This document shows, one piece after another, positions 15,888 to 26,462 of a stretch of DNA of 55,146 nucleotides. The position numbers were made by a program, and so were the translations under genes. The DNA is from an archaeon. Its GTDB lineage: Archaea; Micrarchaeota; Micrarchaeia; CAILAH01. The stretch lies in NCBI GenBank assembly GCA_024274875.1, contig JAJSAH010000018.1, positions 1-55,146 on the forward strand. The letters are read 5' to 3'. Numbering within the stretch: position 1 is the stretch's first letter; each line of letters starts with the position of its first letter. The notes beneath the pieces were generated by a model that worked only from the letters and a program-made list of their open reading frames with translations, made no database searches and was not told the origin of the DNA.

Positions 15888-16292
15888 TCATAAATCATTA
15901 ATGCGCATTTCCATTGCGCAGGAATTTGCAATAACTTCCAACCCATTGCGCGCTGCAAATTCATACGCTTCCTTATTATACGCGCCCGGCTGCATCCAGA
16001 TTAATTTCAAACTATTATGCATTTTTTTAAGTTCAACCGCCTGCTTAACTATCCCTAAAACTGCAGCTGCATGCACAAAAATATCGACCATATCTATGCT
16101 CTTAGCAATATTTTCTGGCAGAGCAATCAATGAAGGATAGCACTTAACTCCTTCAATTGAATCATACTTTGGAGTTATGGGGATCACTTTGAACCCATTC
16201 TTAATAAAGTAGCGCATAACCGCATTGCTGGGCCTGTTTGGGTTAGGCGACGCGCCTACTACTGCAATCACGCGAACATCATTCCAATTCAT
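15888..16292 (-). CDS. CoA-binding protein (YccU-like)
   Basis: IAVVGASPNPNRPS, VDIF, IWMQPG and NSC motifs. Confidence 0.9.
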   Translation of the reverse strand: MNWNDVRVIAVVGASPNPNRPSNAVMRYFIKNGFKVIPITPKYDSIEGVKCYPSLIALPENIAKSIDMVDIFVHAAAVLGIVKQAVELKKMHNSLKLIWMQPGAYNKEAYEFAARNGLEVIANSCAMEMRINDL

Positions 16293-16319
16293 AATAAAAA
16301 TATGATGCATAAGATTTTA

Positions 16320-17147
16320 TTAAGTAGTATGCTTTCTCTTGCGCACTGCTTCCGGCCTAATAAGATCTTTGGTGATATTAAAGTCATCTTGACTGCGTTC
16401 AGCAATCTCATTGATTGCATTCGCAACAATATTCTTCAATATTCCAGGAATCCCATCACTACGCAACAATCTGTTGAGCAAGTAATACTTCCCATCAAAT
16501 ATGCAATTCTCCACAAGCTTAACCCCAACAATTACCCTATTCTCCTCTGGAATAAGCGAATTTGAGCATACCCCAACCAAATCGTTGAACTCATTTTCTG
16601 TCAAACTCGGCCCTACCATCCGCATATCATTAACGCTGATGTGAATGCTTGCAGCATTCCTAACCTTTCTCGGCAGCGCAATGTTCCTGCACATTTTAAC
16701 CAACATAACTTTATCGCCGCGCGATGCAAAATTATCCACTGCGCGCATTCCCACTTTTTTTAGGTCATTTTTTGCCATTAACTTGATGTTTCGCGGAATG
16801 TTGCAACTTATGCTAAGCCTCGATAATTCGAAAATATCATCAGTGATACAACAATTTTCTATGGCTTTCATTCCGGAATATTCGCGCACTTTCATGAGAT
16901 ATCCCTCATTCTCGCAGATGGAAACAAGCGATTCATAATCGCACATCGATGAGTATATCTCGCACAATTTCATGCCTGCATATTCCCTTACCTGAGGATG
17001 TTGATATGAATCCCTGCCTATAACCTCCAAGTAATCAAGCCTACTGTTTGAGATGCATCTGCGAACCAGCTCCATGCCACACCGTATCCGTTCGCTTTCA
17101 TCTTCGGAAAACCGCGCTGAATACATAAGTTCATTCATGCTACTCAT
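16320..17147 (-). CDS. Helical tandem-repeat protein (~34-aa units)
   Basis: Recurring VREYAGMKLCE / VREYSGMKAIE / KVGMRAVD / IVGVKLVE units. Confidence 0.6.
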   Translation of the reverse strand: MSSMNELMYSARFSEDESERIRCGMELVRRCISNSRLDYLEVIGRDSYQHPQVREYAGMKLCEIYSSMCDYESLVSICENEGYLMKVREYSGMKAIENCCITDDIFELSRLSISCNIPRNIKLMAKNDLKKVGMRAVDNFASRGDKVMLVKMCRNIALPRKVRNAASIHISVNDMRMVGPSLTENEFNDLVGVCSNSLIPEENRVIVGVKLVENCIFDGKYYLLNRLLRSDGIPGILKNIVANAINEIAERSQDDFNITKDLIRPEAVRKRKHTT

Positions 17148-17222: not shown

Positions 17223-19025
17223 CTATTCAACAGTGACCGATTTTGCGAGGTTGCGGGGGCGGTCGACATCAACCCCTTTTAGGTCCGCTATGTAATACGC
17301 CAAAAGCTGCAAAGGTATTACATTAATTATAGGAGAAACTAACGGGCTTGTTTTTGGAACCTCTATAATATAATCAGCAACCTGCCTGACATTCTCATCA
17401 ATCTCATTAATCACTGCAATTACAATTGCTTTGCGAGCTTTAACCTCTTCCATATTGCTGACTACCTTATCATACAACCCATCTTTTGGAGATATGAATA
17501 CTACCGGAAACCCTTCATCAATCAATGCAATCGGCCCATGCTTCATCTCGCCGGCAGGATAACCTTCTGCATGTATGTACGAAATCTCTTTCAATTTAAG
17601 AGCGCCTTCAAGCGCCACTGGATAATTAATGCCTCTGCCTAAATACAAAAAATTTCTCTTTTGCGCAAGATCTTCTGCAATGCGTTCAACTATCTTTGCG
17701 TTATCGAGCACTCTATCGACCATATTGGGCAAATCTGTGATCTCATTAAGCAATTGGTTATCTGCAACTCCTCCACGGGCTTGGCGCGCGTATAAGGCAA
17801 ACAGCAGCAGCGCAAGAACCTGGCTCGTGAACGCTTTGGTGCTCGCAACGCTTATCTCTGGACCTGCACGAAGATAAATTCCTCCGTCAACCTCGCGCGA
17901 AATCGTTGACCCAACAACATTTACAATACCTATAACTCGCGCGCCTTTCTGCTTAGCAGCGCGCACTGCGCCTATCGTATCCGCAGTTTCGCCCGACTGC
18001 GAGATCGCAATAACTAAATCTCCTCGCCCAATGATTGGGTTTCTATACTTAAATTCTGATGCATAATCAACTTCCACCGGAACGCGAATCAAGTTCTCTA
18101 TAATGTATTTGCCGATTATTGCCGAATGCCAACTTGTTCCACACGCAATGATGATAATACGGCTCACCGAATTTAAGTTCACATTAAGCGTGAGTTTTAC
18201 TGAATTGCCCCTTACCCTGCCTCTTATCAAATTGCTCAGAGATTCGGGCTGTTCAAATATTTCTTTCAGCATAAAATGCTTAAACCCACCTTTCTCAACA
18301 TCTGATAATGATGCATCAAGGCGTTTAACTTGTTTGTTAACGCTCTCGCCGTTAAGTTTTCGAACATGTATTCTATCACACATCACTGATGCGATCTCTC
18401 CATCGGACAAATATACTACTTTATTTGTATTGCCAACTAAAGCAGCCGCATCAGATGCAATGAACATCGCCCCATCTCCAAAACCTATGACTATGGGAGA
18501 GCTTTTGCATGCAACCACTATTCTGTCCTCGCTCTTATGGATCGATGCAATTGCATAGGCGCCTTCAATAGATTTCACTGCCCTTGCAACCGCAGATTCT
18601 AAATCACCATCATAAAATTCCTCTATCAGATGCGCAATAACCTCAGAATCCGTGTCTGATTTGAATGCATGGCCTTTGTCCATCAACATCTTTTTAAGCG
18701 TTTTGTAATTTTCGATTATTCCATTATGCGCAATAGCTATCTCATCTTTGCAGGATGTGTGCGGGTGCGCATTTTCATCTGTGGGTTCTCCGTGAGTGGC
18801 CCACCTTGTATGGCCTATTCCTAATTTTGCATCCTTAAATTCAACCTTTTCAAGTTTTTTCTCAAGTTTTGAGATATTGCCCCCGCACTTTACTGTTGAT
18901 ATCAATCCGCCAGCAATCAATGAGATGCCTGCACTGTCATATCCTCTATACTCAAGCCTTTTTAGGCCCTTGACTAAAAACTCTGCAACATCCCCTTCTC
19001 CAATATACCCTATAATCCCGCACAT
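17223..19025 (-). CDS. glmS: Glutamine--fructose-6-phosphate aminotransferase
   Basis: Ntn start MCGIIG at 19025; GHTRWATHG, SQSGET and C-terminal PRNLAKSVTVE. Confidence 0.98.
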   Translation of the reverse strand: MCGIIGYIGEGDVAEFLVKGLKRLEYRGYDSAGISLIAGGLISTVKCGGNISKLEKKLEKVEFKDAKLGIGHTRWATHGEPTDENAHPHTSCKDEIAIAHNGIIENYKTLKKMLMDKGHAFKSDTDSEVIAHLIEEFYDGDLESAVARAVKSIEGAYAIASIHKSEDRIVVACKSSPIVIGFGDGAMFIASDAAALVGNTNKVVYLSDGEIASVMCDRIHVRKLNGESVNKQVKRLDASLSDVEKGGFKHFMLKEIFEQPESLSNLIRGRVRGNSVKLTLNVNLNSVSRIIIIACGTSWHSAIIGKYIIENLIRVPVEVDYASEFKYRNPIIGRGDLVIAISQSGETADTIGAVRAAKQKGARVIGIVNVVGSTISREVDGGIYLRAGPEISVASTKAFTSQVLALLLFALYARQARGGVADNQLLNEITDLPNMVDRVLDNAKIVERIAEDLAQKRNFLYLGRGINYPVALEGALKLKEISYIHAEGYPAGEMKHGPIALIDEGFPVVFISPKDGLYDKVVSNMEEVKARKAIVIAVINEIDENVRQVADYIIEVPKTSPLVSPIINVIPLQLLAYYIADLKGVDVDRPRNLAKSVTVE

Positions 19026-19078: not shown

Positions 19079-20080
19079 ATGAAAGCCATCGAGTTGGTTA
19101 TGAAACGGGCTGTTGGTGCTGAAAAAAGAATTGTCTTCCCTGAAGGGTCTGACATTCGAATTATAGCCGCTGCAAGAAGATCTCTTGATAAAAAAATTGC
19201 TAAACCAATTCTTATAGGGAATGAAAAAACTATTATAAAGAATGCTAAAAATGCAGGGGTAGGATTAAAAGGGATTGAAATTGTTGATCCAGTAAGGAGC
19301 GATAAAATATATGAATACGCTAAGTTGTACTCTAAGATTACCAAAACCCCTGTAAAAACATCTAAACTAATCGCTCGCCAGCCAATATTTTATTCTGCGC
19401 TTGCTCTCAAAAACGGAGATGCTGACGGAATGATTGGCGGCTTAGTGTACACATCAGGAGATTTCATATCCGTATGCAAAGGCGTTGTGGGATTAAAAAG
19501 AGGCATTTCTGTTCCATCGAGCTATTTCATAATGGATGTCCCAGGATATGATGGCGGCGAGAATGGCGCTTTGCTGTACGCAGATGCATCAGTCAACCCT
19601 AACCCTACTGCGAAAGAACTCGCTGACATCGCGGTTACCACTGGTTATACTGCAATCAACCTACTTAAATGGAAACCGCGCATAGCTATGTTATCTTTTT
19701 CAACAAAGGGCAGCGCTGTGCACCCGGATGTTGAGAAAGTTGTAAATGCAACGCAGATTGCTATAAAAAAAGCAAGGAATATGAATATTGATGGAGAATT
19801 GCAAGCTGATGCTGCGCTCATCAAATCAACTGCAAAAAAGAAGATTAAGGGAAATTTAGGTTGCGTTGCCGGAAAAGCTAACATACTCATATTCCCGGAT
19901 TTAGATGCAGGAAATATTGCGTATAAGCTTACGCAGATTCTCGCCGGCGCGCATGCATACGGCCCAATACTGCAGGGATTCTCAAAACCTGTAAGCGATC
20001 TATCGCGCGGTGCAAAAGTTGATGATATACTGGGCGTTATCGCAATTGTGTGTGTTATTGCGAAGGAGATGAAAAAATGA
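19079..20080 (+). CDS. pta: Phosphate acetyltransferase
   Basis: IVFPEG, AMLSFSTKGS, DGELQADAA, FPDLDAGNIAYK and DLSRG motifs. Confidence 0.95.
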   Translation: MKAIELVMKRAVGAEKRIVFPEGSDIRIIAAARRSLDKKIAKPILIGNEKTIIKNAKNAGVGLKGIEIVDPVRSDKIYEYAKLYSKITKTPVKTSKLIARQPIFYSALALKNGDADGMIGGLVYTSGDFISVCKGVVGLKRGISVPSSYFIMDVPGYDGGENGALLYADASVNPNPTAKELADIAVTTGYTAINLLKWKPRIAMLSFSTKGSAVHPDVEKVVNATQIAIKKARNMNIDGELQADAALIKSTAKKKIKGNLGCVAGKANILIFPDLDAGNIAYKLTQILAGAHAYGPILQGFSKPVSDLSRGAKVDDILGVIAIVCVIAKEMKK

Positions 20081-21258
20081 AAACCATTCTCGTACTGAAC
20101 TGCGGGAGCTCATCAATCAAGTATAAATTATTCAACTCAAAAATGCGCGTGGTTGTTCACGGATTGGTGGAGAAGATAGGTGAGGAGGGTTCGAGAATCC
20201 TGCATTGGAAAGGGATTAAGCGCATGGCAGTCAACATTAATATAAACAATCACAAACAAGGGATACAGGAGTTGCTGAAAATTATTTTAAATAAGGAATG
20301 GGGCGGCATTAAAAATATTAGCGATATATCAATTGTCGGGCATAGAGTTGTTCACGGCGGTGAGATGTCAAAAACTGTGTTTGCATCCAAAAAAACGCTC
20401 AACAGAGTTAAAAAATACGAAGCGCTCGCCCCATTGCATAACCCCCATAATCTTACAGGCATAAAAGAATGCATGAGAATTATGCGAGGCACGCCTCAAG
20501 CAATGGTATTTGATACTGCATTTCATCAAACGATGCCCAAGAAAGCATTTATGTATGGCCTGCCATACGAGTATTATGCGCAGCTAGGCATAAGAAAGTA
20601 TGGATTCCATGGAACTTCGCACAAGTATGTATATGAGCAGGTGCGAAAACTGCTCAGAAAACGCAAATGCAATGTGATCACATGCCATCTCGGCGCAGGG
20701 TCGAGCATCACAGCGATTAAGAAAGGCATCTCGGTAGATACAAGCATGGGACTGACTCCGCTTGAAGGAGTCATGATGGCTACGCGCACTGGAGATCTTG
20801 ATCCTGCCATTGTTCAGCATTTAATTCGCAATTGCAAAATGAGCATCGATGAAATATTTTATGTTATGAATCATAAAAGCGGGCTGCTTGGCATATCAGG
20901 AGTGAGCAGGGATGTAAGAGTTATTGAGGAAAAAGCTAAGAAAGGCAACAAAAGATGCAAATTATCGTTGCAGATGTTTTCATACAGAGTTGCCAAATAC
21001 ATCGCTGCATATTCTGCTGTTCTTGGAGATGTCGATGCGATCGCATTTGCCGGAGGAATAGGAGAGAATGATTGGAAGATTAGAGAAGATATCTGTAAAT
21101 ACCTAAATATTATCGGGGTAAAAATAGACCGCACTAAAAATAAAAAATCAAAAACGCTTATCAGCGCAAAAAATTCAAAAATTAAGGTGTTTGCAATCCA
21201 TACTGATGAAGAAGTTATGATTGCAAAAGAAGCGTTAAATGCATTAAGGAAAAGGTGA
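20077..21258 (+). CDS. ackA: Acetate kinase
   Basis: LNCGSSS, GHRVVHGG, APLHNP, FDTAFH, YGFHGTSH, TPLEG, GGIGEN and TDEE motifs; ATGA overlap with the pta stop. Confidence 0.96.
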   Translation: MKTILVLNCGSSSIKYKLFNSKMRVVVHGLVEKIGEEGSRILHWKGIKRMAVNININNHKQGIQELLKIILNKEWGGIKNISDISIVGHRVVHGGEMSKTVFASKKTLNRVKKYEALAPLHNPHNLTGIKECMRIMRGTPQAMVFDTAFHQTMPKKAFMYGLPYEYYAQLGIRKYGFHGTSHKYVYEQVRKLLRKRKCNVITCHLGAGSSITAIKKGISVDTSMGLTPLEGVMMATRTGDLDPAIVQHLIRNCKMSIDEIFYVMNHKSGLLGISGVSRDVRVIEEKAKKGNKRCKLSLQMFSYRVAKYIAAYSAVLGDVDAIAFAGGIGENDWKIREDICKYLNIIGVKIDRTKNKKSKTLISAKNSKIKVFAIHTDEEVMIAKEALNALRKR

Positions 21259-21262
21259 ATAT

Positions 21263-21619
21263 GTGAACATTGCAAATATAGGAATAGATGTTGTTGATAT
21301 TGAAAGGACAAAAAGAATACTTGCATCTAAAACAGGCAGTAATTTTATCGCGAGCACATACACTAAAAATGAGATCGAGTACTGCAATGGATGCCCGGTA
21401 AAATTGTCAGGGCATTTTGCGGTTAAAGAGGCAGTTTACAAAGCACTTGGAACTGGATGGATTAACGGGCGCGAAGTAGAAGTGCTGCACGGGAAGGATG
21501 GAGTTCCAATAGTTAAACTGCATGGAAAAACAAAAAAAATCGCAAAAAACAAAAAAATCAGCGCAAGCATCGCGTATGCAAGCGAAATTGCAATCGCAGC
21601 AGTTGTCATTTACGAGTAA
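21263..21619 (+). CDS. acpS: Holo-[acyl-carrier-protein] synthase (AcpS-type PPTase)
   Basis: 118 aa; IGIDVV and FAVKEAVYKALGTG motifs, G.P motif. Confidence 0.92.
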   Translation: MNIANIGIDVVDIERTKRILASKTGSNFIASTYTKNEIEYCNGCPVKLSGHFAVKEAVYKALGTGWINGREVEVLHGKDGVPIVKLHGKTKKIAKNKKISASIAYASEIAIAAVVIYE

Positions 21620-21848
21620 GCTTCTTTTTTATGTATGCAATCGCCTGGCCCACAGTCTTGTTGCGGTTGGCATCTTGAGAAGGAACCTTTATGCCAAACT
21701 CATTCTCAGTGGCAGCTATTAATGCGATTATATCCATGGACTTTGCATTTAAATCCTCTACAAACCTCGTGTTATTTTTTATTGCTGACGGCTTGACTCT
21801 GAATATGTCTGAGACAATGCTTTTGAACCTATCCTCGATGCTTTTCAT
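21606..21848 (-). CDS. acpP: Acyl carrier protein (basic variant)
   Basis: 80 aa, colinear with E. coli AcpP (IEDR..., FVEDLNAKSMD, ENEFGI.VP, TVGQAIAYI); Ser37 at the phosphopantetheine position. Confidence 0.9.
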   Translation of the reverse strand: MKSIEDRFKSIVSDIFRVKPSAIKNNTRFVEDLNAKSMDIIALIAATENEFGIKVPSQDANRNKTVGQAIAYIKKKLTRK

Positions 21849-22250
21849 TCATTTCACAACCCTGAACAAGACAACATTGATGCCTGCTTTCTTCGATACT
21901 TTTGCTCTAACTTTTGCTGGAAGATTTTCATTGCCCTCCTTGATTTTCTCAGGAGTCGATGCATCCAATCCTTCAATCATCGTAAGGAATGTTGGGCCCT
22001 CCTCCAACTCAACCAAACCGTATGCATACGGAGAATACTTTGCAAACTTCTTTGGAGGAAGTATGCTCGTTGAATAGTAATGCACTATGCCTTTTCCTGA
22101 AATTTTCTTATAAGATATATTCCTGCTACCGCATTCCCTGCATGCTGCCACGGGAGGAAAGGTCCATTTCCCGCAATCCTTACAATGCGCGCCAAGTATC
22201 TTGCCTTTTGCAAGATTTCCATAAAACATTTTTGCGATTTTATCAACCAT
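21849..22250 (-). CDS. DUF35 Zn-ribbon/OB-fold protein (thiolase partner, acyl-CoA binding)
   Basis: CKDC...FPP...CREC ribbon followed by the OB fold G.VHYYS...PYAYGLVELEEGP. Confidence 0.92.
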   Translation of the reverse strand: MVDKIAKMFYGNLAKGKILGAHCKDCGKWTFPPVAACRECGSRNISYKKISGKGIVHYYSTSILPPKKFAKYSPYAYGLVELEEGPTFLTMIEGLDASTPEKIKEGNENLPAKVRAKVSKKAGINVVLFRVVK

Positions 22251-22254
22251 GCAA

Positions 22255-23523
22255 TCACCTCTTTTTAAACACAGTTACAGCAGTTTGCATGCCATACCCA
22301 TGGTTATGCTGAGCAGCAACCTTAATTTCCTTTTTAACCTGCCGCCTTCCTGCTTCACCTCTCATTTGCTTCACGATTTCATATGTTTCTGCTCCTGGAG
22401 ATGCAGCAAACGCATGACCCTTGCCGTGCCTGCCTCCTGAAGTATTCATCGGCTTGTCATGGTTGTACAATGTACGGTCCTCCAAGAACGCCTTCCATGC
22501 CTCGCCTTTCTTGAAGTATCCAGCAATTTCTGAAAGTATTAACTGATAGATCTGCATGCAGTCATGCACAGATAAATAATCTAAATTCTTTCCGCTCACT
22601 TTCGCCATCCTGTACGCATTCTTGAATGCAACCTTGTCAATGAACCAATTTGTCGGGTCCTTGTCATGCCATGGGTAATTGCTCGCTGACCAATGGAACC
22701 CGATTATGTCAATAGGCTGATCACTGAACTTGCGGGCTTTATCCGGTCTTGTAACTATGTATGCTGATGCGCCATCAGCAGTGTTAAGAGCGCTTAACAA
22801 TCTTGTAGGGTATGCAAAGAAAGGATTATTCCTTGATTTCCAATAATCATACGTTGTCCTAAAACGCTTTCTTTTAGATGATTTCTCCAAACTCTCAGTC
22901 ACGAATGCTTTAGGATTAAGCGATGAATGCTTCCTTACCGCCTTATGCACATGATACATCACCCTATCCATTTCATCCAATGGAATATTATTCTTCCGCG
23001 CATAACCTAATGTTGGTATTGCGCCGTAGGCAGTTGCAATGTCATAGCAATGATGGTATGCATAAATCTGATCCACGCCAAAATCAGTCCAATACCATAA
23101 CTGCTGCGGCCCGATGGCTTTCCTCTCAACAGGGTTGTCATTGGGATATGATGACAGAATCTCAGCGCCAGCCACCAATACTGTATCAAATTTTCCGGAA
23201 GATACTGCCATAGCAGCCAAACCCAACCCTGTATTTAATGTTGAGCATGCAGTTGCAAAATGCAACCCAGGTTTAAGATTAAGCCCAAGCCAATCAGCAA
23301 GCTGTGTATGATGGCTGTACACATGAGAACTATGGCTGAGCATGCTTCCTATGTAAAATGCGTCTATGTCCTTCCCTGTCATGCCTGCATCATCCATCGC
23401 TTCAAACGCCGCCTCAGCAATAAGCTCGTGGAATGTTTTTCCCTTAAGCTCAGGAGTTTTAAGAACGCTCCCAAACTTAGTGCATCCCACACCTACAATA
23501 GATCCTTTGGGTTTTGCGGTCAA
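22255..23523 (-). CDS. Thiolase (archaeal/SCP2-type acetyl-CoA C-acyltransferase)
   Basis: GVGCTKFG, Cys93 (TACST), DGASA, HDC, NTSGG..GKGH and HNHG motifs; TTG start with AGGTGA SD. Confidence 0.9.
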   Translation of the reverse strand: MTAKPKGSIVGVGCTKFGSVLKTPELKGKTFHELIAEAAFEAMDDAGMTGKDIDAFYIGSMLSHSSHVYSHHTQLADWLGLNLKPGLHFATACSTLNTGLGLAAMAVSSGKFDTVLVAGAEILSSYPNDNPVERKAIGPQQLWYWTDFGVDQIYAYHHCYDIATAYGAIPTLGYARKNNIPLDEMDRVMYHVHKAVRKHSSLNPKAFVTESLEKSSKRKRFRTTYDYWKSRNNPFFAYPTRLLSALNTADGASAYIVTRPDKARKFSDQPIDIIGFHWSASNYPWHDKDPTNWFIDKVAFKNAYRMAKVSGKNLDYLSVHDCMQIYQLILSEIAGYFKKGEAWKAFLEDRTLYNHDKPMNTSGGRHGKGHAFAASPGAETYEIVKQMRGEAGRRQVKKEIKVAAQHNHGYGMQTAVTVFKKR

Positions 23524-23586: not shown

Positions 23587-24114
23587 TTAATATGCATATT
23601 CTTCTTTTTCACCGGAACGTTTATTAGAGTATCTCGAAAGTATGAACAATAAATCAGACAATCTGTTAAGATACTTCAATTCTGTTAAGAACTTCCCCTC
23701 ATTCTCATATAACAAAGATATGATGCGCTCTGCCCTCCTGCAAACTGCCCTCGAAACATGCAAAAACGCAGCAAGCCGCGTTCCGCTGGGCAGTATGAAT
23801 GAATTAAGTCCAGGGAGATCGCCCGCATACTTGTCTATTTGATTTTCAATGTATGAGATGCGGTTTTCATCTATGCTCTCGTCCGAGCCGGCCACATGCC
23901 CCGCAACCTTATACAAATCCTGCTGAACCTCTTTTAACAAACTATTCAACTGATAATCTTCCTCGCAGTGAGCCCTGCACACACCTATGAATGAACTTAA
24001 CTCATCAAGCGTTCCACAGGCACCAACTAATGGAGATTTCTTCTTTATCCTGCCACCGCTGAATATAGAAGTTTCGCCATAATCACCTAATCCTGTATAA
24101 ATCTTATCACTCAT
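23587..24114 (-). CDS. pduO: ATP:cob(I)alamin adenosyltransferase (PduO type)
   Basis: KIYTGLGDYGET, GTLDEL, FILPSG, CRRAER and YLNRLSDLLF motifs. Confidence 0.93.
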   Translation of the reverse strand: MSDKIYTGLGDYGETSIFSGGRIKKKSPLVGACGTLDELSSFIGVCRAHCEEDYQLNSLLKEVQQDLYKVAGHVAGSDESIDENRISYIENQIDKYAGDLPGLNSFILPSGTRLAAFLHVSRAVCRRAERIISLLYENEGKFLTELKYLNRLSDLLFILSRYSNKRSGEKEEYAY

Positions 24115-24962: not shown

Positions 24963-25784
24963 TTAATCACCTTTGCTTTTCTTTTTCTTCTTGGCAGTTT
25001 TCTTCTTGCTCGCTGATTTCTTCTTCCTTGTTCCTTTCTTTGCCTTGCTCGTTTTTTCAGTTTTGGGTTCAGCATCGCTCTTCGTCTTAGATCTTCTGGA
25101 TTCAGAAGATTCATCTGGTTTTGGCTCTTTGCGTTCTGCTGGTTTCTGCTCTTTCATTGCTTGATCCAAAACAGGTTCTACTTCACTTTCAGAAATCTCA
25201 ACCTTCTTATCTGGGAACTCCACATCTGGAGGAGCGATGCTCACAAGAACGCCAATAGCGCCCGCTTTTGGGTATGCGGTCACATGCGCGCGCTTCACCC
25301 ACCTCGCAGGCTCGCCGGCCTTTGGGAGATAACCTGCCATGGCCCTAAATGTGCGCGCCCTGCCGCCTTTAGCCGCCAATTTGCCGCTTATAACTATCTC
25401 GCACCCAACTGCACCTGCATCCATAATTGATTTTATCATGAAATGCATCATCCTGCGCGGGTTCTTGCCCATCTCAATCAATCTTCTCAGCTTATCAGCA
25501 ATCACCTGCGGCTCAAGGTTGGGCGATGACACCGCAGATATGTTAATCTTTGGATTATCTATTCCAAACTCTTTCTTAAGTCTCTCAGTAATTTCATTTA
25601 TCGTTCTTCCCTTTCTGCCTATCACTCTTCCAGGATTAGTAACTTCCGCAGTGATCAGAGTAATCAAGGGGGTTTTCTGTATAGTTAGGTTGGAGAACCC
25701 TGCTCTCTGAAGCTGATTTTTCATAAAATCAGCTATCTTAAATCGCAATACGGAATCTTCTATAAACTTCCTTTCAACAGTCAT
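24963..25784 (-). CDS. rps3: 30S ribosomal protein S3 with Lys-rich tail
   Basis: KH domain PGRVIGRKG; GCEIVISGKL. Confidence 0.96.
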   Translation of the reverse strand: MTVERKFIEDSVLRFKIADFMKNQLQRAGFSNLTIQKTPLITLITAEVTNPGRVIGRKGRTINEITERLKKEFGIDNPKINISAVSSPNLEPQVIADKLRRLIEMGKNPRRMMHFMIKSIMDAGAVGCEIVISGKLAAKGGRARTFRAMAGYLPKAGEPARWVKRAHVTAYPKAGAIGVLVSIAPPDVEFPDKKVEISESEVEPVLDQAMKEQKPAERKEPKPDESSESRRSKTKSDAEPKTEKTSKAKKGTRKKKSASKKKTAKKKKKSKGD

Positions 25785-25787
25785 TCA

Positions 25788-26462
25788 TTACACCTTCTTC
25801 TTTGATTCTTTGAGCTTTTTAGATTTGGGAACATGCTTGCTTTTTTCCTTTGGCTTTGACTCCTGTTTCTCAGCGGATTTCTTCGCAGGTAATCTTTCTT
25901 TTGCAACATCGTCCGCCTTCTTCGCCTCCACAGAGGGTTGTTTCTGCTTATTAGATTCAACTGCCTTCTCTTTCTTTTTCTTCTTTTCTGGCAAGCTAAC
26001 TTCTGCAATCTTGCGAGGTTCGCCTTTCAAAACAATCTCTACACGAGCTGTCTCATAATCCCATCGCATCCTTCTTCCTTTTGGAGCAAGTCTCGGAAAC
26101 ATGCTCTGCTTATTCGCCGCCGCGTGAACAACCACCAAGGTATCCTCTTCAAGCTGTTTAACGCGAGCATTATTGATTGCGTTTGCAAGCACCCTCTTCA
26201 CAATCCTAACCGCCTTTACAGGATACCTGCCTTTCTTACCACCTAACTGCCTTCTATGCCCAAGCTTCTTGTTATGTCTTCGATATTCAATGGGAATCTC
26301 CATGCGCTCAGCCTTGCCTAAAAGAGCCATCGCATCATTTACTGGTTTGTTCCGTATATTCCTGCATACTTCGCACAAATCCTTGTAAGATGCATCTAAA
26401 TCATACCGCTGCGCACGCGCAAACTCTTCGCCAGCTTTGCCAAATGAATATCTCATGTGCAT
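25788..26462 (-). CDS. rpl22: 50S ribosomal protein L22 with long Lys/Glu tail
   Basis: GRYPVKA and LANAINNA motifs; operon position. Confidence 0.95.
   Translation of the reverse strand: MHMRYSFGKAGEEFARAQRYDLDASYKDLCEVCRNIRNKPVNDAMALLGKAERMEIPIEYRRHNKKLGHRRQLGGKKGRYPVKAVRIVKRVLANAINNARVKQLEEDTLVVVHAAANKQSMFPRLAPKGRRMRWDYETARVEIVLKGEPRKIAEVSLPEKKKKKEKAVESNKQKQPSVEAKKADDVAKERLPAKKSAEKQESKPKEKSKHVPKSKKLKESKKKV

Follow-up and report, generated by a model that had tools for sequence, protein, structure and literature searches.

The 55,146-nt contig JAJSAH010000018.1 (C18) of a Micrarchaeota genome (GCA_024274875.1), here called the window, carries at positions 19079-23523 a block of six open reading frames (ORFs) that brings together a thiolase-like protein, a DUF35 protein, an acyl carrier protein (ACP), an AcpS-type phosphopantetheinyl transferase, Pta and AckA. 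A first reading of the sequence, hereafter the original prediction, had described this block as two tight three-gene units that converge with a 14-nt overlap, and our analysis of the sequence confirmed the coordinates, the families and the overlap. The plus-strand trio encodes Pta, AckA and AcpS, the minus-strand trio encodes the thiolase-like protein, DUF35 and ACP, and all six products score above the Pfam cut-offs. The six genes, which we refer to as the module, are as follows.

19079-20080, plus strand: Pta, phosphate acetyltransferase, 333 aa; PF01515 (PTA_PTB) 329.7 bits, NF007233 312.5 against a cut-off of 310.
20077-21258, plus strand: AckA, acetate kinase, 393 aa; PF00871 (Acetate_kinase) 449.5 bits, TIGR00016 463.5 against a cut-off of 293.4.
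21263-21619, plus strand: AcpS-type 4'-phosphopantetheinyl transferase, 118 aa, GTG start; PF01648 (ACPS) 50.7 against 25, TIGR00556 61.8 against 45.35.
21606-21848, minus strand: ACP, 80 aa; PF00550 (PP-binding) 35.4 against 20.8, AcpP model TIGR00517 73.7 against 70.45.
21849-22250, minus strand: DUF35 protein, 133 aa, Cys4 zinc ribbon and OB fold; PF12172 (zf-ChsH2) 47.9 against 23.2, PF01796 (OB_ChsH2_C) 37.1 against 27.1.
22255-23523, minus strand: divergent archaeal-type thiolase, 422 aa, TTG start; PF22691 (Thiolase_C_1) 97.9 against 28, Thiolase_N 40 against 26.4.

Within each trio the intergenic gaps are 0 to 4 nt. The true start of AckA is the ATG at 20077, which overlaps the stop codon of Pta as ATGA. 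The trios overlap at 21606-21619, where the AcpS stop codon TAA (21617-21619) faces the minus-strand stop codon TGA of ACP (21608-21606). On the equivalog-domain model TIGR00516 the transferase scores 56.7, slightly below the cut-off of 59.8; it has the single domain and the size of about 120 aa of the AcpS type.

The recurrence of this gene set was examined with a profile of the thiolase subfamily, which recovered 80 loci from one genome per prokaryote species. In 18 of these loci the thiolase is at least 56% identical to that of the window; three of them end inside the thiolase gene and 15 extend beyond it. DUF35, ACP and AckA are encoded within a few kb in all 15, Pta in 14 (the exception, L010, ends inside ackA) and AcpS also in 14 (12 found by tblastn, L016 by blastp and L017 by clustering; the exception, L008, ends inside ackA). 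The remaining 62 loci have thiolases of 28-40% identity, and none of them has ACP, AcpS, Pta or AckA in its flanks. A divergent second type of the module, with thiolases 49-50% identical, comprises the same six genes in G110 and G313, and G757 likewise carries all six, which adds three further loci with thiolases of 49-53% identity. One more subfamily member, P0105 (53% identical), is assigned by its source to a haloarchaeon of cultured type, Halodesulfurarchaeum sp. HSR-GB. G757 is a 2.2-Mb archaeal genome with a local GC content of 64% and gave the only match among 401 genomes of another archaeal phylum. The hosts are thus Micrarchaeota, Patescibacteria of the Candidate Phyla Radiation (CPR), metagenome-assembled genomes (MAGs) of other anaerobes and the high-GC archaeal genome G757, and the nearest homologues of the module proteins carry the labels Micrarchaeota or Woesearchaeota in databases. 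An all-against-all ORF comparison of the related loci found no seventh conserved gene, the six being the only conserved neighbours across the 15 loci, and HMG-CoA synthase (HMGS) is present in none of the module loci. The grouping of the six is not a chance one. Whether ACP and AcpS stand beside the thiolase-DUF35 pair in other genomes had been set as a test beforehand, and they do so in every related locus that reaches far enough. Overall the six genes occur together in 18 other loci, wherever the contig extends far enough, and they behave as one functional unit, as had been anticipated. At least six gene orders were seen, with the set staying together:

Window and most Micrarchaeota contigs: convergent trios.
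L015: Pta-AckA-AcpS-Thl-DUF35-ACP, colinear.
L016: Thl-DUF35-ACP-AckA-Pta-AcpS, colinear.
L019: Thl-DUF35-AcpS-ACP-Pta-AckA, colinear.
L008: fully colinear.
Three CPR contigs: Thl-DUF35-ACP facing (AcpS)-Pta-AckA.
G757: ACP-Pta-AckA-AcpS with 4-nt overlaps, facing Thl-DUF35.

That this linkage has survived so much shuffling in both domains argues more strongly than anything else for a joint function of the six products. Alternatively, two independent functions could be travelling together, namely an ordinary Pta-AckA fermentation pair and a separate Thl-DUF35-ACP-AcpS pathway, with Pta handling nothing on ACP. Such a division would fit the canonical nature of Pta and AckA by family cut-offs and catalytic residues, the two separate convergent transcription units of the window, and the pairing of Pta and AckA without ACP in non-module CPR loci, where AckA is adjacent in 3 of 5. 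It fits poorly with six genes that remain together through at least six rearrangements in two domains, and with an AcpS gene that most loci have inside the pta-ackA unit. ACP itself lies immediately upstream of pta or ackA in L008, L016, L019 and G757, and in G757 a 4-nt overlap couples it translationally to pta; among the loci with enough sequence none has one trio only. Moreover, the module Ptas form a clade of their own (support 97) apart from the five non-module CPR Ptas. We therefore regard two unrelated functions as rather unlikely.

Some loci deserve separate mention. In L009 (2071-4804) about 2.7 kb separate ACP and AcpS, unlike in every other locus. L024 (6971-8648, labelled Syntrophomonas) encodes a 40% identical thiolase with DUF35 and has no ACP, AcpS, Pta or AckA nearby; its neighbourhood (phosphate ABC transporter, PhoU, Hsp20, MurJ) is uninformative. 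The L024 thiolase groups with an Anaerolineaceae-labelled module thiolase (98/99) on a long branch and may represent an ACP-less form of the subfamily. Thiolases of both module types (about 78% and about 51% identical) are listed on contigs of identical length, 60,124 nt for P0028 and P0115 and 23,768 nt for P0019 and P0110, so that the module, or at least its thiolase, may be present twice in some genomes.

The position of the block in the chromosome is informative as well. In the same-family genome G003 the genes for cobalamin adenosyltransferase and GlmS directly adjoin each other, and precisely at this junction the window has the six genes; the gene order beyond cobalamin adenosyltransferase is common to same-family relatives. 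The GC content across the block (0.405-0.431) matches the surroundings, and the junction spacers measure 53-63 nt. The distribution is patchy: a search of 400 other genomes in the phylum of the window detected the subfamily thiolase in 19. One family, with 76 genomes searched, accounts for 14 of these, and the window's own family, with 5, for none, while the module ACP was found in none of 60 relatives searched and, with the ACP as query, in none of 8 same-family genomes. We read the block as an inserted accessory, horizontally mobile unit in a real archaeal chromosome. The label of an archaeal system, given in the original prediction, does not hold up in this form, since the block is patchy, mobile and shared with CPR and other bacteria. 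An origin of the block from chimeric assembly or bacterial contamination instead of the archaeal chromosome would account for the bacterial type of ACP, AcpS, Pta and AckA and for the lack of the ACP in the 60 relatives. It would not account for flanks that are both syntenic with same-family genomes and abut each other in G003, for the matching GC content and the short junction spacers, or for the block's presence on other Micrarchaeota-labelled contigs, including a 1.2-Mb record titled chromosome, and for the 19 positive genomes in the phylum. On synteny, composition and recurrence of the block we rejected this explanation as highly improbable.

The same slot is occupied differently in other relatives. 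In G004 (L096 5560-8937) and G008 (L099 2668-6977), both of genus g5, it is filled by a cassette of 3.4-4.3 kb with genes for BacA/UppP and a flavodoxin-like protein and with ORFs that match no Pfam family, and in G006 (L098 5218-9844) by a 4.6-kb stretch.

In the thiolase tree, a long branch separates the module thiolases, a clade with 100/100 support, from the canonical archaeal thiolases, and within that clade a bacterial clade (CPR, one actinomycete-labelled MAG and two 0.6-Mb MAGs labelled "Gammaproteobacteria") is nested among archaeal copies. In the Pta tree, from which L023 was left out as truncated, archaeal copies nest among bacterial ones. The two trees appear to point in opposite ways on the direction of inter-domain transfer. 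The tree results therefore make the module look like a chimera of an archaeal-type thiolase/DUF35 pair and bacterial-type ACP, AcpS, Pta and AckA.

The window belongs to an 833-kb genome of 24 contigs that is 89.7% complete, and all genome-wide negatives reported here carry this completeness. The genome has one PP-binding gene and one ACPS-family gene, both inside the module. Pta and AckA are single-copy by tblastn, and Pta is the only PTA_PTB gene found. Of the two thiolases encoded, the second lies on contig C10 in an ordinary HMGS-thiolase-DUF35 operon; because the genome has this operon, the module is a second, separate system. The original prediction had noted that the window lacks fab, polyketide synthase (PKS), adenylation and hmgS genes and had proposed to look for hmgS and fab in the rest of the genome. 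Genome-wide Pfam searches agree: HMGS is found only on C10 with its own thiolase and DUF35, and the 833-kb genome gave no match to Acyl_transf_1 (PF00698, FabD), adh_short_C2 (PF13561, FabG/FabI type), FabA/Z (PF07977) or AMP-binding. The sole ketoacyl-synt (PF00109) match in the genome is the C10 thiolase; the FabH C-terminal family had no separate search. A bacterial type II fatty acid synthase, with FabD, ketosynthase, FabG, FabZ/A and FabI besides ACP, was accordingly not found in this genome, and full fatty-acid synthesis was rejected as a role of the module on these grounds. As no malonyl-dependent machinery was matched in the genome, the malonyl-independent character proposed at the outset is supported.

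Five other module genomes were also searched, two named Micrarchaeota and three CPR genomes of 0.4-0.6 Mb. In all five the module ACP is the only PP-binding match and the module Pta the only PTA_PTB match. PF00109 again gave a single match in each, the canonical thiolase in the archaea and the module thiolase in the CPR bacteria. The archaeal hosts have a complete HMGS-thiolase-DUF35 operon besides the module, and the three CPR genomes gave no match to HMGS and no second thiolase. Mevalonate entry was rejected as the role of the module, given the HMGS with its own thiolase and DUF35 on C10 and the missing HMGS match in the three CPR module genomes. Larger hosts have PP-binding genes besides the module ACP, with 2 matches in G714 (1.5 Mb) and 5 in G715 (3.4 Mb). 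Of the genomes searched in the phylum of G409, 6 of 301 have a match to Pta and 18 of 151 one to PP-binding. The idea that the ACP serves lipid salvage in CPR bacteria is weakened by these PP-binding counts.

The thiolase retains the residues expected of a catalytic enzyme. Archaeal thiolases use the catalytic motifs CxS, HDxF and GHx, according to the available part of PMC12960953. In the module subfamily Cys93 is invariant in 87 of 87 sequences and stands in a C-S-T motif rather than C-x-S, with Thr95 conserved in at least 90%. His320 and Asp321 of the HDxF motif are conserved in at least 90%, Cys322 is invariant, and Met323 replaces Phe in the window protein (H-D-C-M). Of the GHx motif, Gly369 is invariant and His370 is conserved in at least 90%. 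The protein scores below every NCBIfam thiolase cut-off, e.g. 196.7 against 420 for NF004720 and 179.7 against 600 for NF053570, and a look-up in the ESM Atlas returned generic thiolase clusters only. By sequence it appears to belong to the superfamily and to none of the named equivalogs. Relative to the canonical C10 thiolase of the same genome it has extra segments at about residues 19-24, 130-144 and 226-231, which are specific to the subfamily. In DUF35, all 17 sequences compared share the four zinc-ribbon cysteines Cys23, Cys26, Cys37 and Cys40.

The ACP has its attachment residue Ser37 invariant in 60 of 60 sequences. Its motif is A-K-S-[MI]-D (A-K-S-M-D in the window copy), with Lys36 in 98% of the 60 sequences where AcpP has Asp. 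Its best solved relative is the bacterial AcpP 2EHS (E 2.1e-16), and several acidic residues are replaced in the alignment; the acidic D-S-L motif and the acidic helix II surface of the AcpP type were not found in the module ACP. The calculated isoelectric point (pI) of the window ACP is 10.0. Among 16 copies it is 9.2-10.1 in 10, which comprise nine on archaea-labelled contigs and L016, labelled Oleimmundimicrobium, and 4.8-6.4 in the other 6.

In Pta of Methanosarcina thermophila, Ser309, Arg310 and Asp316 are catalytic, and Arg133 lies in CoA site 2 and affects Km, as stated in the accessible part of PMC6461089. The equivalents of the three catalytic residues are kept in all module Ptas, in the stretch S-D-L-S-R-G...D-D. 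At the position of Arg133 all 15 module Ptas have Ser, Thr or Ala (Ser in the window), while all 3 solved Ptas shown and 3 of 5 non-module CPR Ptas have the arginine. At that of Arg87, 6 of 14 module Ptas carry an arginine. The loss of CoA-site arginines is a weak lead towards ACP use and no proof of it, since the controls vary too. The best solved relative of AckA is 2IIR (397.5 bits), and the residues aligned with M. thermophila Val93, Leu122, Phe179 and Pro232, which we take to be the acetate-pocket residues, are identical. With these residues conserved, activation of acetoacetate instead of acetate by AckA is unlikely and was set aside.

The physical association of the carrier with the thiolase/DUF35 pair, which the original prediction had suggested modelling, was examined in one complex prediction of thiolase, DUF35 and ACP, each given as its own alignment, with ACP as the scored partner. 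The ACP is predicted to dock with Ser37 at the interface, with ipSAE values of 0.62, 0.68 and 0.70 across runs compared with 0.00 for the best of three controls. In a calibration that differs from this run in how the alignments were supplied, this mark was attained for 58 of 80 solved complexes and for 2 of 110 mismatched pairs. The docking runs agree in at least 93% of contacts, and the pLDDT of the partner is at least 88. The modelled ACP interface consists of helix II and its surroundings (residues 30-31, 34-42, 44-46, 49, 56-58 and 60-61), and Ser37 contacts thiolase residues 139, 142, 143, 245 and 248. DUF35 contributes residues 63-74 to the modelled ACP site, of which 63-64 contact helix II. 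Of the 20 modelled contact residues of the thiolase, 12 fall in the segments that are absent from the genome's canonical thiolase.

We propose that the module forms an ACP-dependent, self-contained thiolase node with a link to acetyl-phosphate and ATP, and we lean slightly towards a joint action of its six products on acetyl or 3-oxoacyl units bound to the ACP. In the proposed sequence of events, AcpS would prime the private ACP on Ser37, as its family membership and the invariant serine suggest. Holo-ACP would then dock via helix II on the surface formed by the thiolase inserts and the DUF35 loop, with the pantetheine arm at the entrance of the thiolase active site in the model. The thiolase may make or break the C2-C3 bond, acetyl-S-enzyme + acetyl-S-ACP <-> acetoacetyl-S-ACP, or act on a longer 3-oxoacyl-ACP, and it may also exchange acetyl groups between CoA and ACP. 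The Pta and AckA families are established links between acetyl thioester, acetyl-phosphate and acetate/ATP, and here they would tie the pool of acetyl thioesters to acetyl-phosphate, acetate and ATP. We speculate that Pta could even act directly on acetyl-S-ACP in a PlsX-like manner, to which the ACP gene directly upstream of pta/ackA in four loci, the module-specific Pta clade and the missing Arg133 equivalent would lend some weight. This more far-reaching version, in which Pta uses acetyl-S-ACP besides or instead of acetyl-CoA, thiolase/DUF35 cleaves 3-oxoacyl units onto ACP or moves acetyl groups onto it, and ATP is drawn from an ACP thioester, we consider improbable.

As to the net direction, thiolysis leading to acetyl-phosphate and ATP is slightly favoured over acetate-driven condensation, because there is no conserved seventh gene that could pull an uphill condensation. 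The condensation of two acetyl thioesters is thermodynamically constrained (PMC5432608, in the part available). With condensation uphill and no conserved consumer, a self-contained set of six genes is therefore energetically coherent in the thiolytic, ATP-yielding direction. The acetate to acetoacetyl direction that the original prediction had assumed does not follow from the evidence.

A strictly anabolic role would mean that AckA and Pta activate acetate and that thiolase/DUF35 condenses it to acetoacetyl-ACP without malonyl, feeding mevalonate entry in the archaeal hosts or another product. Carrier proteins and AcpS are typically biosynthetic, the nearest solved relatives of the thiolase and DUF35 are the archaeal chains 6ESQ/6ET9, and no loader is needed, as the thiolase can take acetyl groups from acetyl-CoA. 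The genome also encodes a POR-type 2-oxoacid oxidoreductase and an Acd-like ATP-grasp_5 gene, which would make Pta-AckA dispensable for ordinary acetate formation, and a reduced-genome bacterium has been described that uses acetate for the mevalonate pathway (PMC3364977, as far as the text is accessible). Since the Acd-like gene is also kept, Pta-AckA is not simply this genome's only acetate/ATP route. Against an anabolic role stand the thermodynamic constraint just mentioned and the 18 compared loci, in none of which a conserved consumer gene accompanies the module. The three CPR genomes without a match to HMGS or another thiolase, the absence of reductase- or dehydratase-type fab matches in the window's genome, and the archaeal hosts that already have a complete HMGS-thiolase-DUF35 operon speak against it as well. 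We thus consider a strictly anabolic module unlikely. The Acd-like match itself is split over C17:117960-118367 and C14:1-225, and because one piece sits at a contig start the gene may be broken by the assembly.

Several observations weigh against the ACP-dependent node that we favour. The modelled contact columns are no more conserved than average: 0.65 compared with 0.72 overall in the thiolase, 0.74 compared with 0.73 in the ACP and 0.71 compared with 0.65 in DUF35. The docking score of this prediction is the model's own confidence, and because solved ketosynthase-ACP complexes exist, the docking pass may partly reflect likeness to these. Pta and AckA resemble, in their sequences, ordinary acetyl-CoA and acetate enzymes. 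Loss of Arg133 is not unique to the module, as 2 of 5 non-module CPR Ptas also lack it, and Arg87 is kept in 6 of 14. The catabolic version has no loader for 3-oxoacyl-ACP, as the anabolic one has no consumer. Finally, ACPs are overwhelmingly biosynthetic, which argues against an ATP-yielding direction.

Among characterized systems, the archaeal thiolase/HMGS/DUF35 complex (6ESQ, 6ET9) is the closest, being the best solved match for both the module thiolase (E 4.6e-35) and DUF35 (6ESQ_E, E 3.6e-15). This canonical complex acts on CoA esters. As in that complex, the thiolase gene is followed by the DUF35 gene, and the catalytic Cys, the HD and GH motifs and the Cys4 ribbon are kept in the module. 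In contrast, the module thiolase is only about 27-30% identical to the genome's own canonical copy, falls in the separate 100/100 clade and has the extra segments. HMG-CoA synthase belongs to the canonical archaeal complex, as described in the available part of PMC12960953, whereas the module has no such partner and has ACP, AcpS, Pta and AckA instead. A similar core of DUF35 and ketothiolase that works without malonyl is found in the fatty acid synthase complex of Sulfolobus acidocaldarius (bioRxiv 10.1101/2024.07.05.601840, partial text), where DUF35 is the scaffold that holds the ketothiolase and its partner enzymes. According to the same part of this source, the S. acidocaldarius complex is independent of ACP, uses CoA esters and includes a reductase, a dehydratase and an enoyl reductase, whereas the module includes ACP and AcpS as integral parts and showed no reductive enzymes. 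The accessible text further states that archaea almost always lack ACP and its synthase and that the proposed archaeal fatty-acid pathway is ACP-independent.

The initiation step of bacterial type II synthesis (AcpP, AcpS, FabH/FabB/FabF) shares with the module an AcpP-homologous ACP, an AcpS-type transferase and, in the model, docking of helix II on a thiolase-fold enzyme. This helix II docking presumably resembles that in solved ketosynthase-ACP complexes. Unlike the bacterial system, the module has neither FabD or another malonyl supply nor FabG, FabZ or FabI types that were found, and it has a thiolase instead of a decarboxylating ketosynthase. Its ACP also differs from bacterial AcpP in having A-K-S in place of the acidic D-S-L motif, and the archaeal copies are basic, with a pI of 9-10. 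For the use of an ACP thioester by a kinase/phosphotransacylase pair and for catabolic use of an acetyl carrier, conceptual precedents are PlsX with fatty acid kinase and the acetyl-S-ACP cycles of citrate lyase and malonate decarboxylase. The ACPs of citrate lyase and malonate decarboxylase bear a different prosthetic group, and, unlike the PlsX system, the module has Pta, which is of a different enzyme family. The PhlABC and MucABC acyltransferases (5M3K; PMC12960953, available part) likewise represent a thiolase-like protein and DUF35 repurposed from mevalonate entry, and PhlC matches with E 2.9e-17. Their thiolase-like subunits lack HDxF, as given in the same part of PMC12960953, and they need an HMGS-like subunit, whereas the module keeps H-D-C-M and has no HMGS-like subunit.

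The original prediction knew of no description of this gene combination. Our literature search, to which supplementary gene tables and much subscription literature did not belong, agrees and found no published description of thiolase-DUF35-ACP-AcpS with Pta-AckA. What sets the module apart from the known, CoA-based systems is a private ACP with its AcpS, tied to thiolase/DUF35 and to acetyl-phosphate/ATP enzymes, in a set that stays intact across archaea and bacteria. Its recurrence in very different microbes points to an undescribed, carrier-protein-based handling of two-carbon units. If the ACP is the working carrier, this would be a new branch of thiolase chemistry. If Pta uses the ACP thioester, the module would provide the first case of a thiolase that depends on ACP and the first of substrate-level phosphorylation drawing on an acyl carrier protein, in the form of a six-gene cassette exchanged among DPANN archaea, CPR bacteria and other anaerobes. 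The module is also a compact metabolic cassette passed by ultra-small symbionts across the domain boundary. The module proteins are small and soluble-looking, which leaves the predictions open to direct tests in vitro.

The features outside the block are as follows.

15888-16310, minus strand: stand-alone CoA-binding protein, 140 aa; PF13380 123.2 bits; about 2.8 kb from the module.
16320-17147, minus strand: 275-aa ORF without a Pfam family, between the CoA-binding gene and glmS.
17223-19025, minus strand: GlmS, left flank of the module; GATase and SIS domains (Pfam).
23587-24114, minus strand: cobalamin adenosyltransferase, right flank of the module; PF01923 165.8 bits.
24963-25784, minus strand: ribosomal protein S3, 273 aa; Pfam domain.
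25788-26462, minus strand: ribosomal protein L22, 224 aa; Pfam domain.

Since the CoA-binding protein (PF13380) is also found near a DEAD helicase in the module-less relative G003, it lies outside the insertion. The glmS ORF is readable from 19073, which is 5 nt from the divergent pta start. GlmS presumably starts with Met-Cys to provide its N-terminal cysteine, which fits the Met-Cys start at 19025 and gives a divergent spacer of 53 nt. To the right of the cobalamin adenosyltransferase gene follows, on the same contig as the module, an archaeal row of RNase_P-MRP_p29, SUI1 and the ribosomal proteins S3 and L22 (Pfam). S3 and L22 both have long lysine-rich C-terminal tails past their Pfam domains, which end at about residue 183 of 273 and about residue 146 of 224, respectively.

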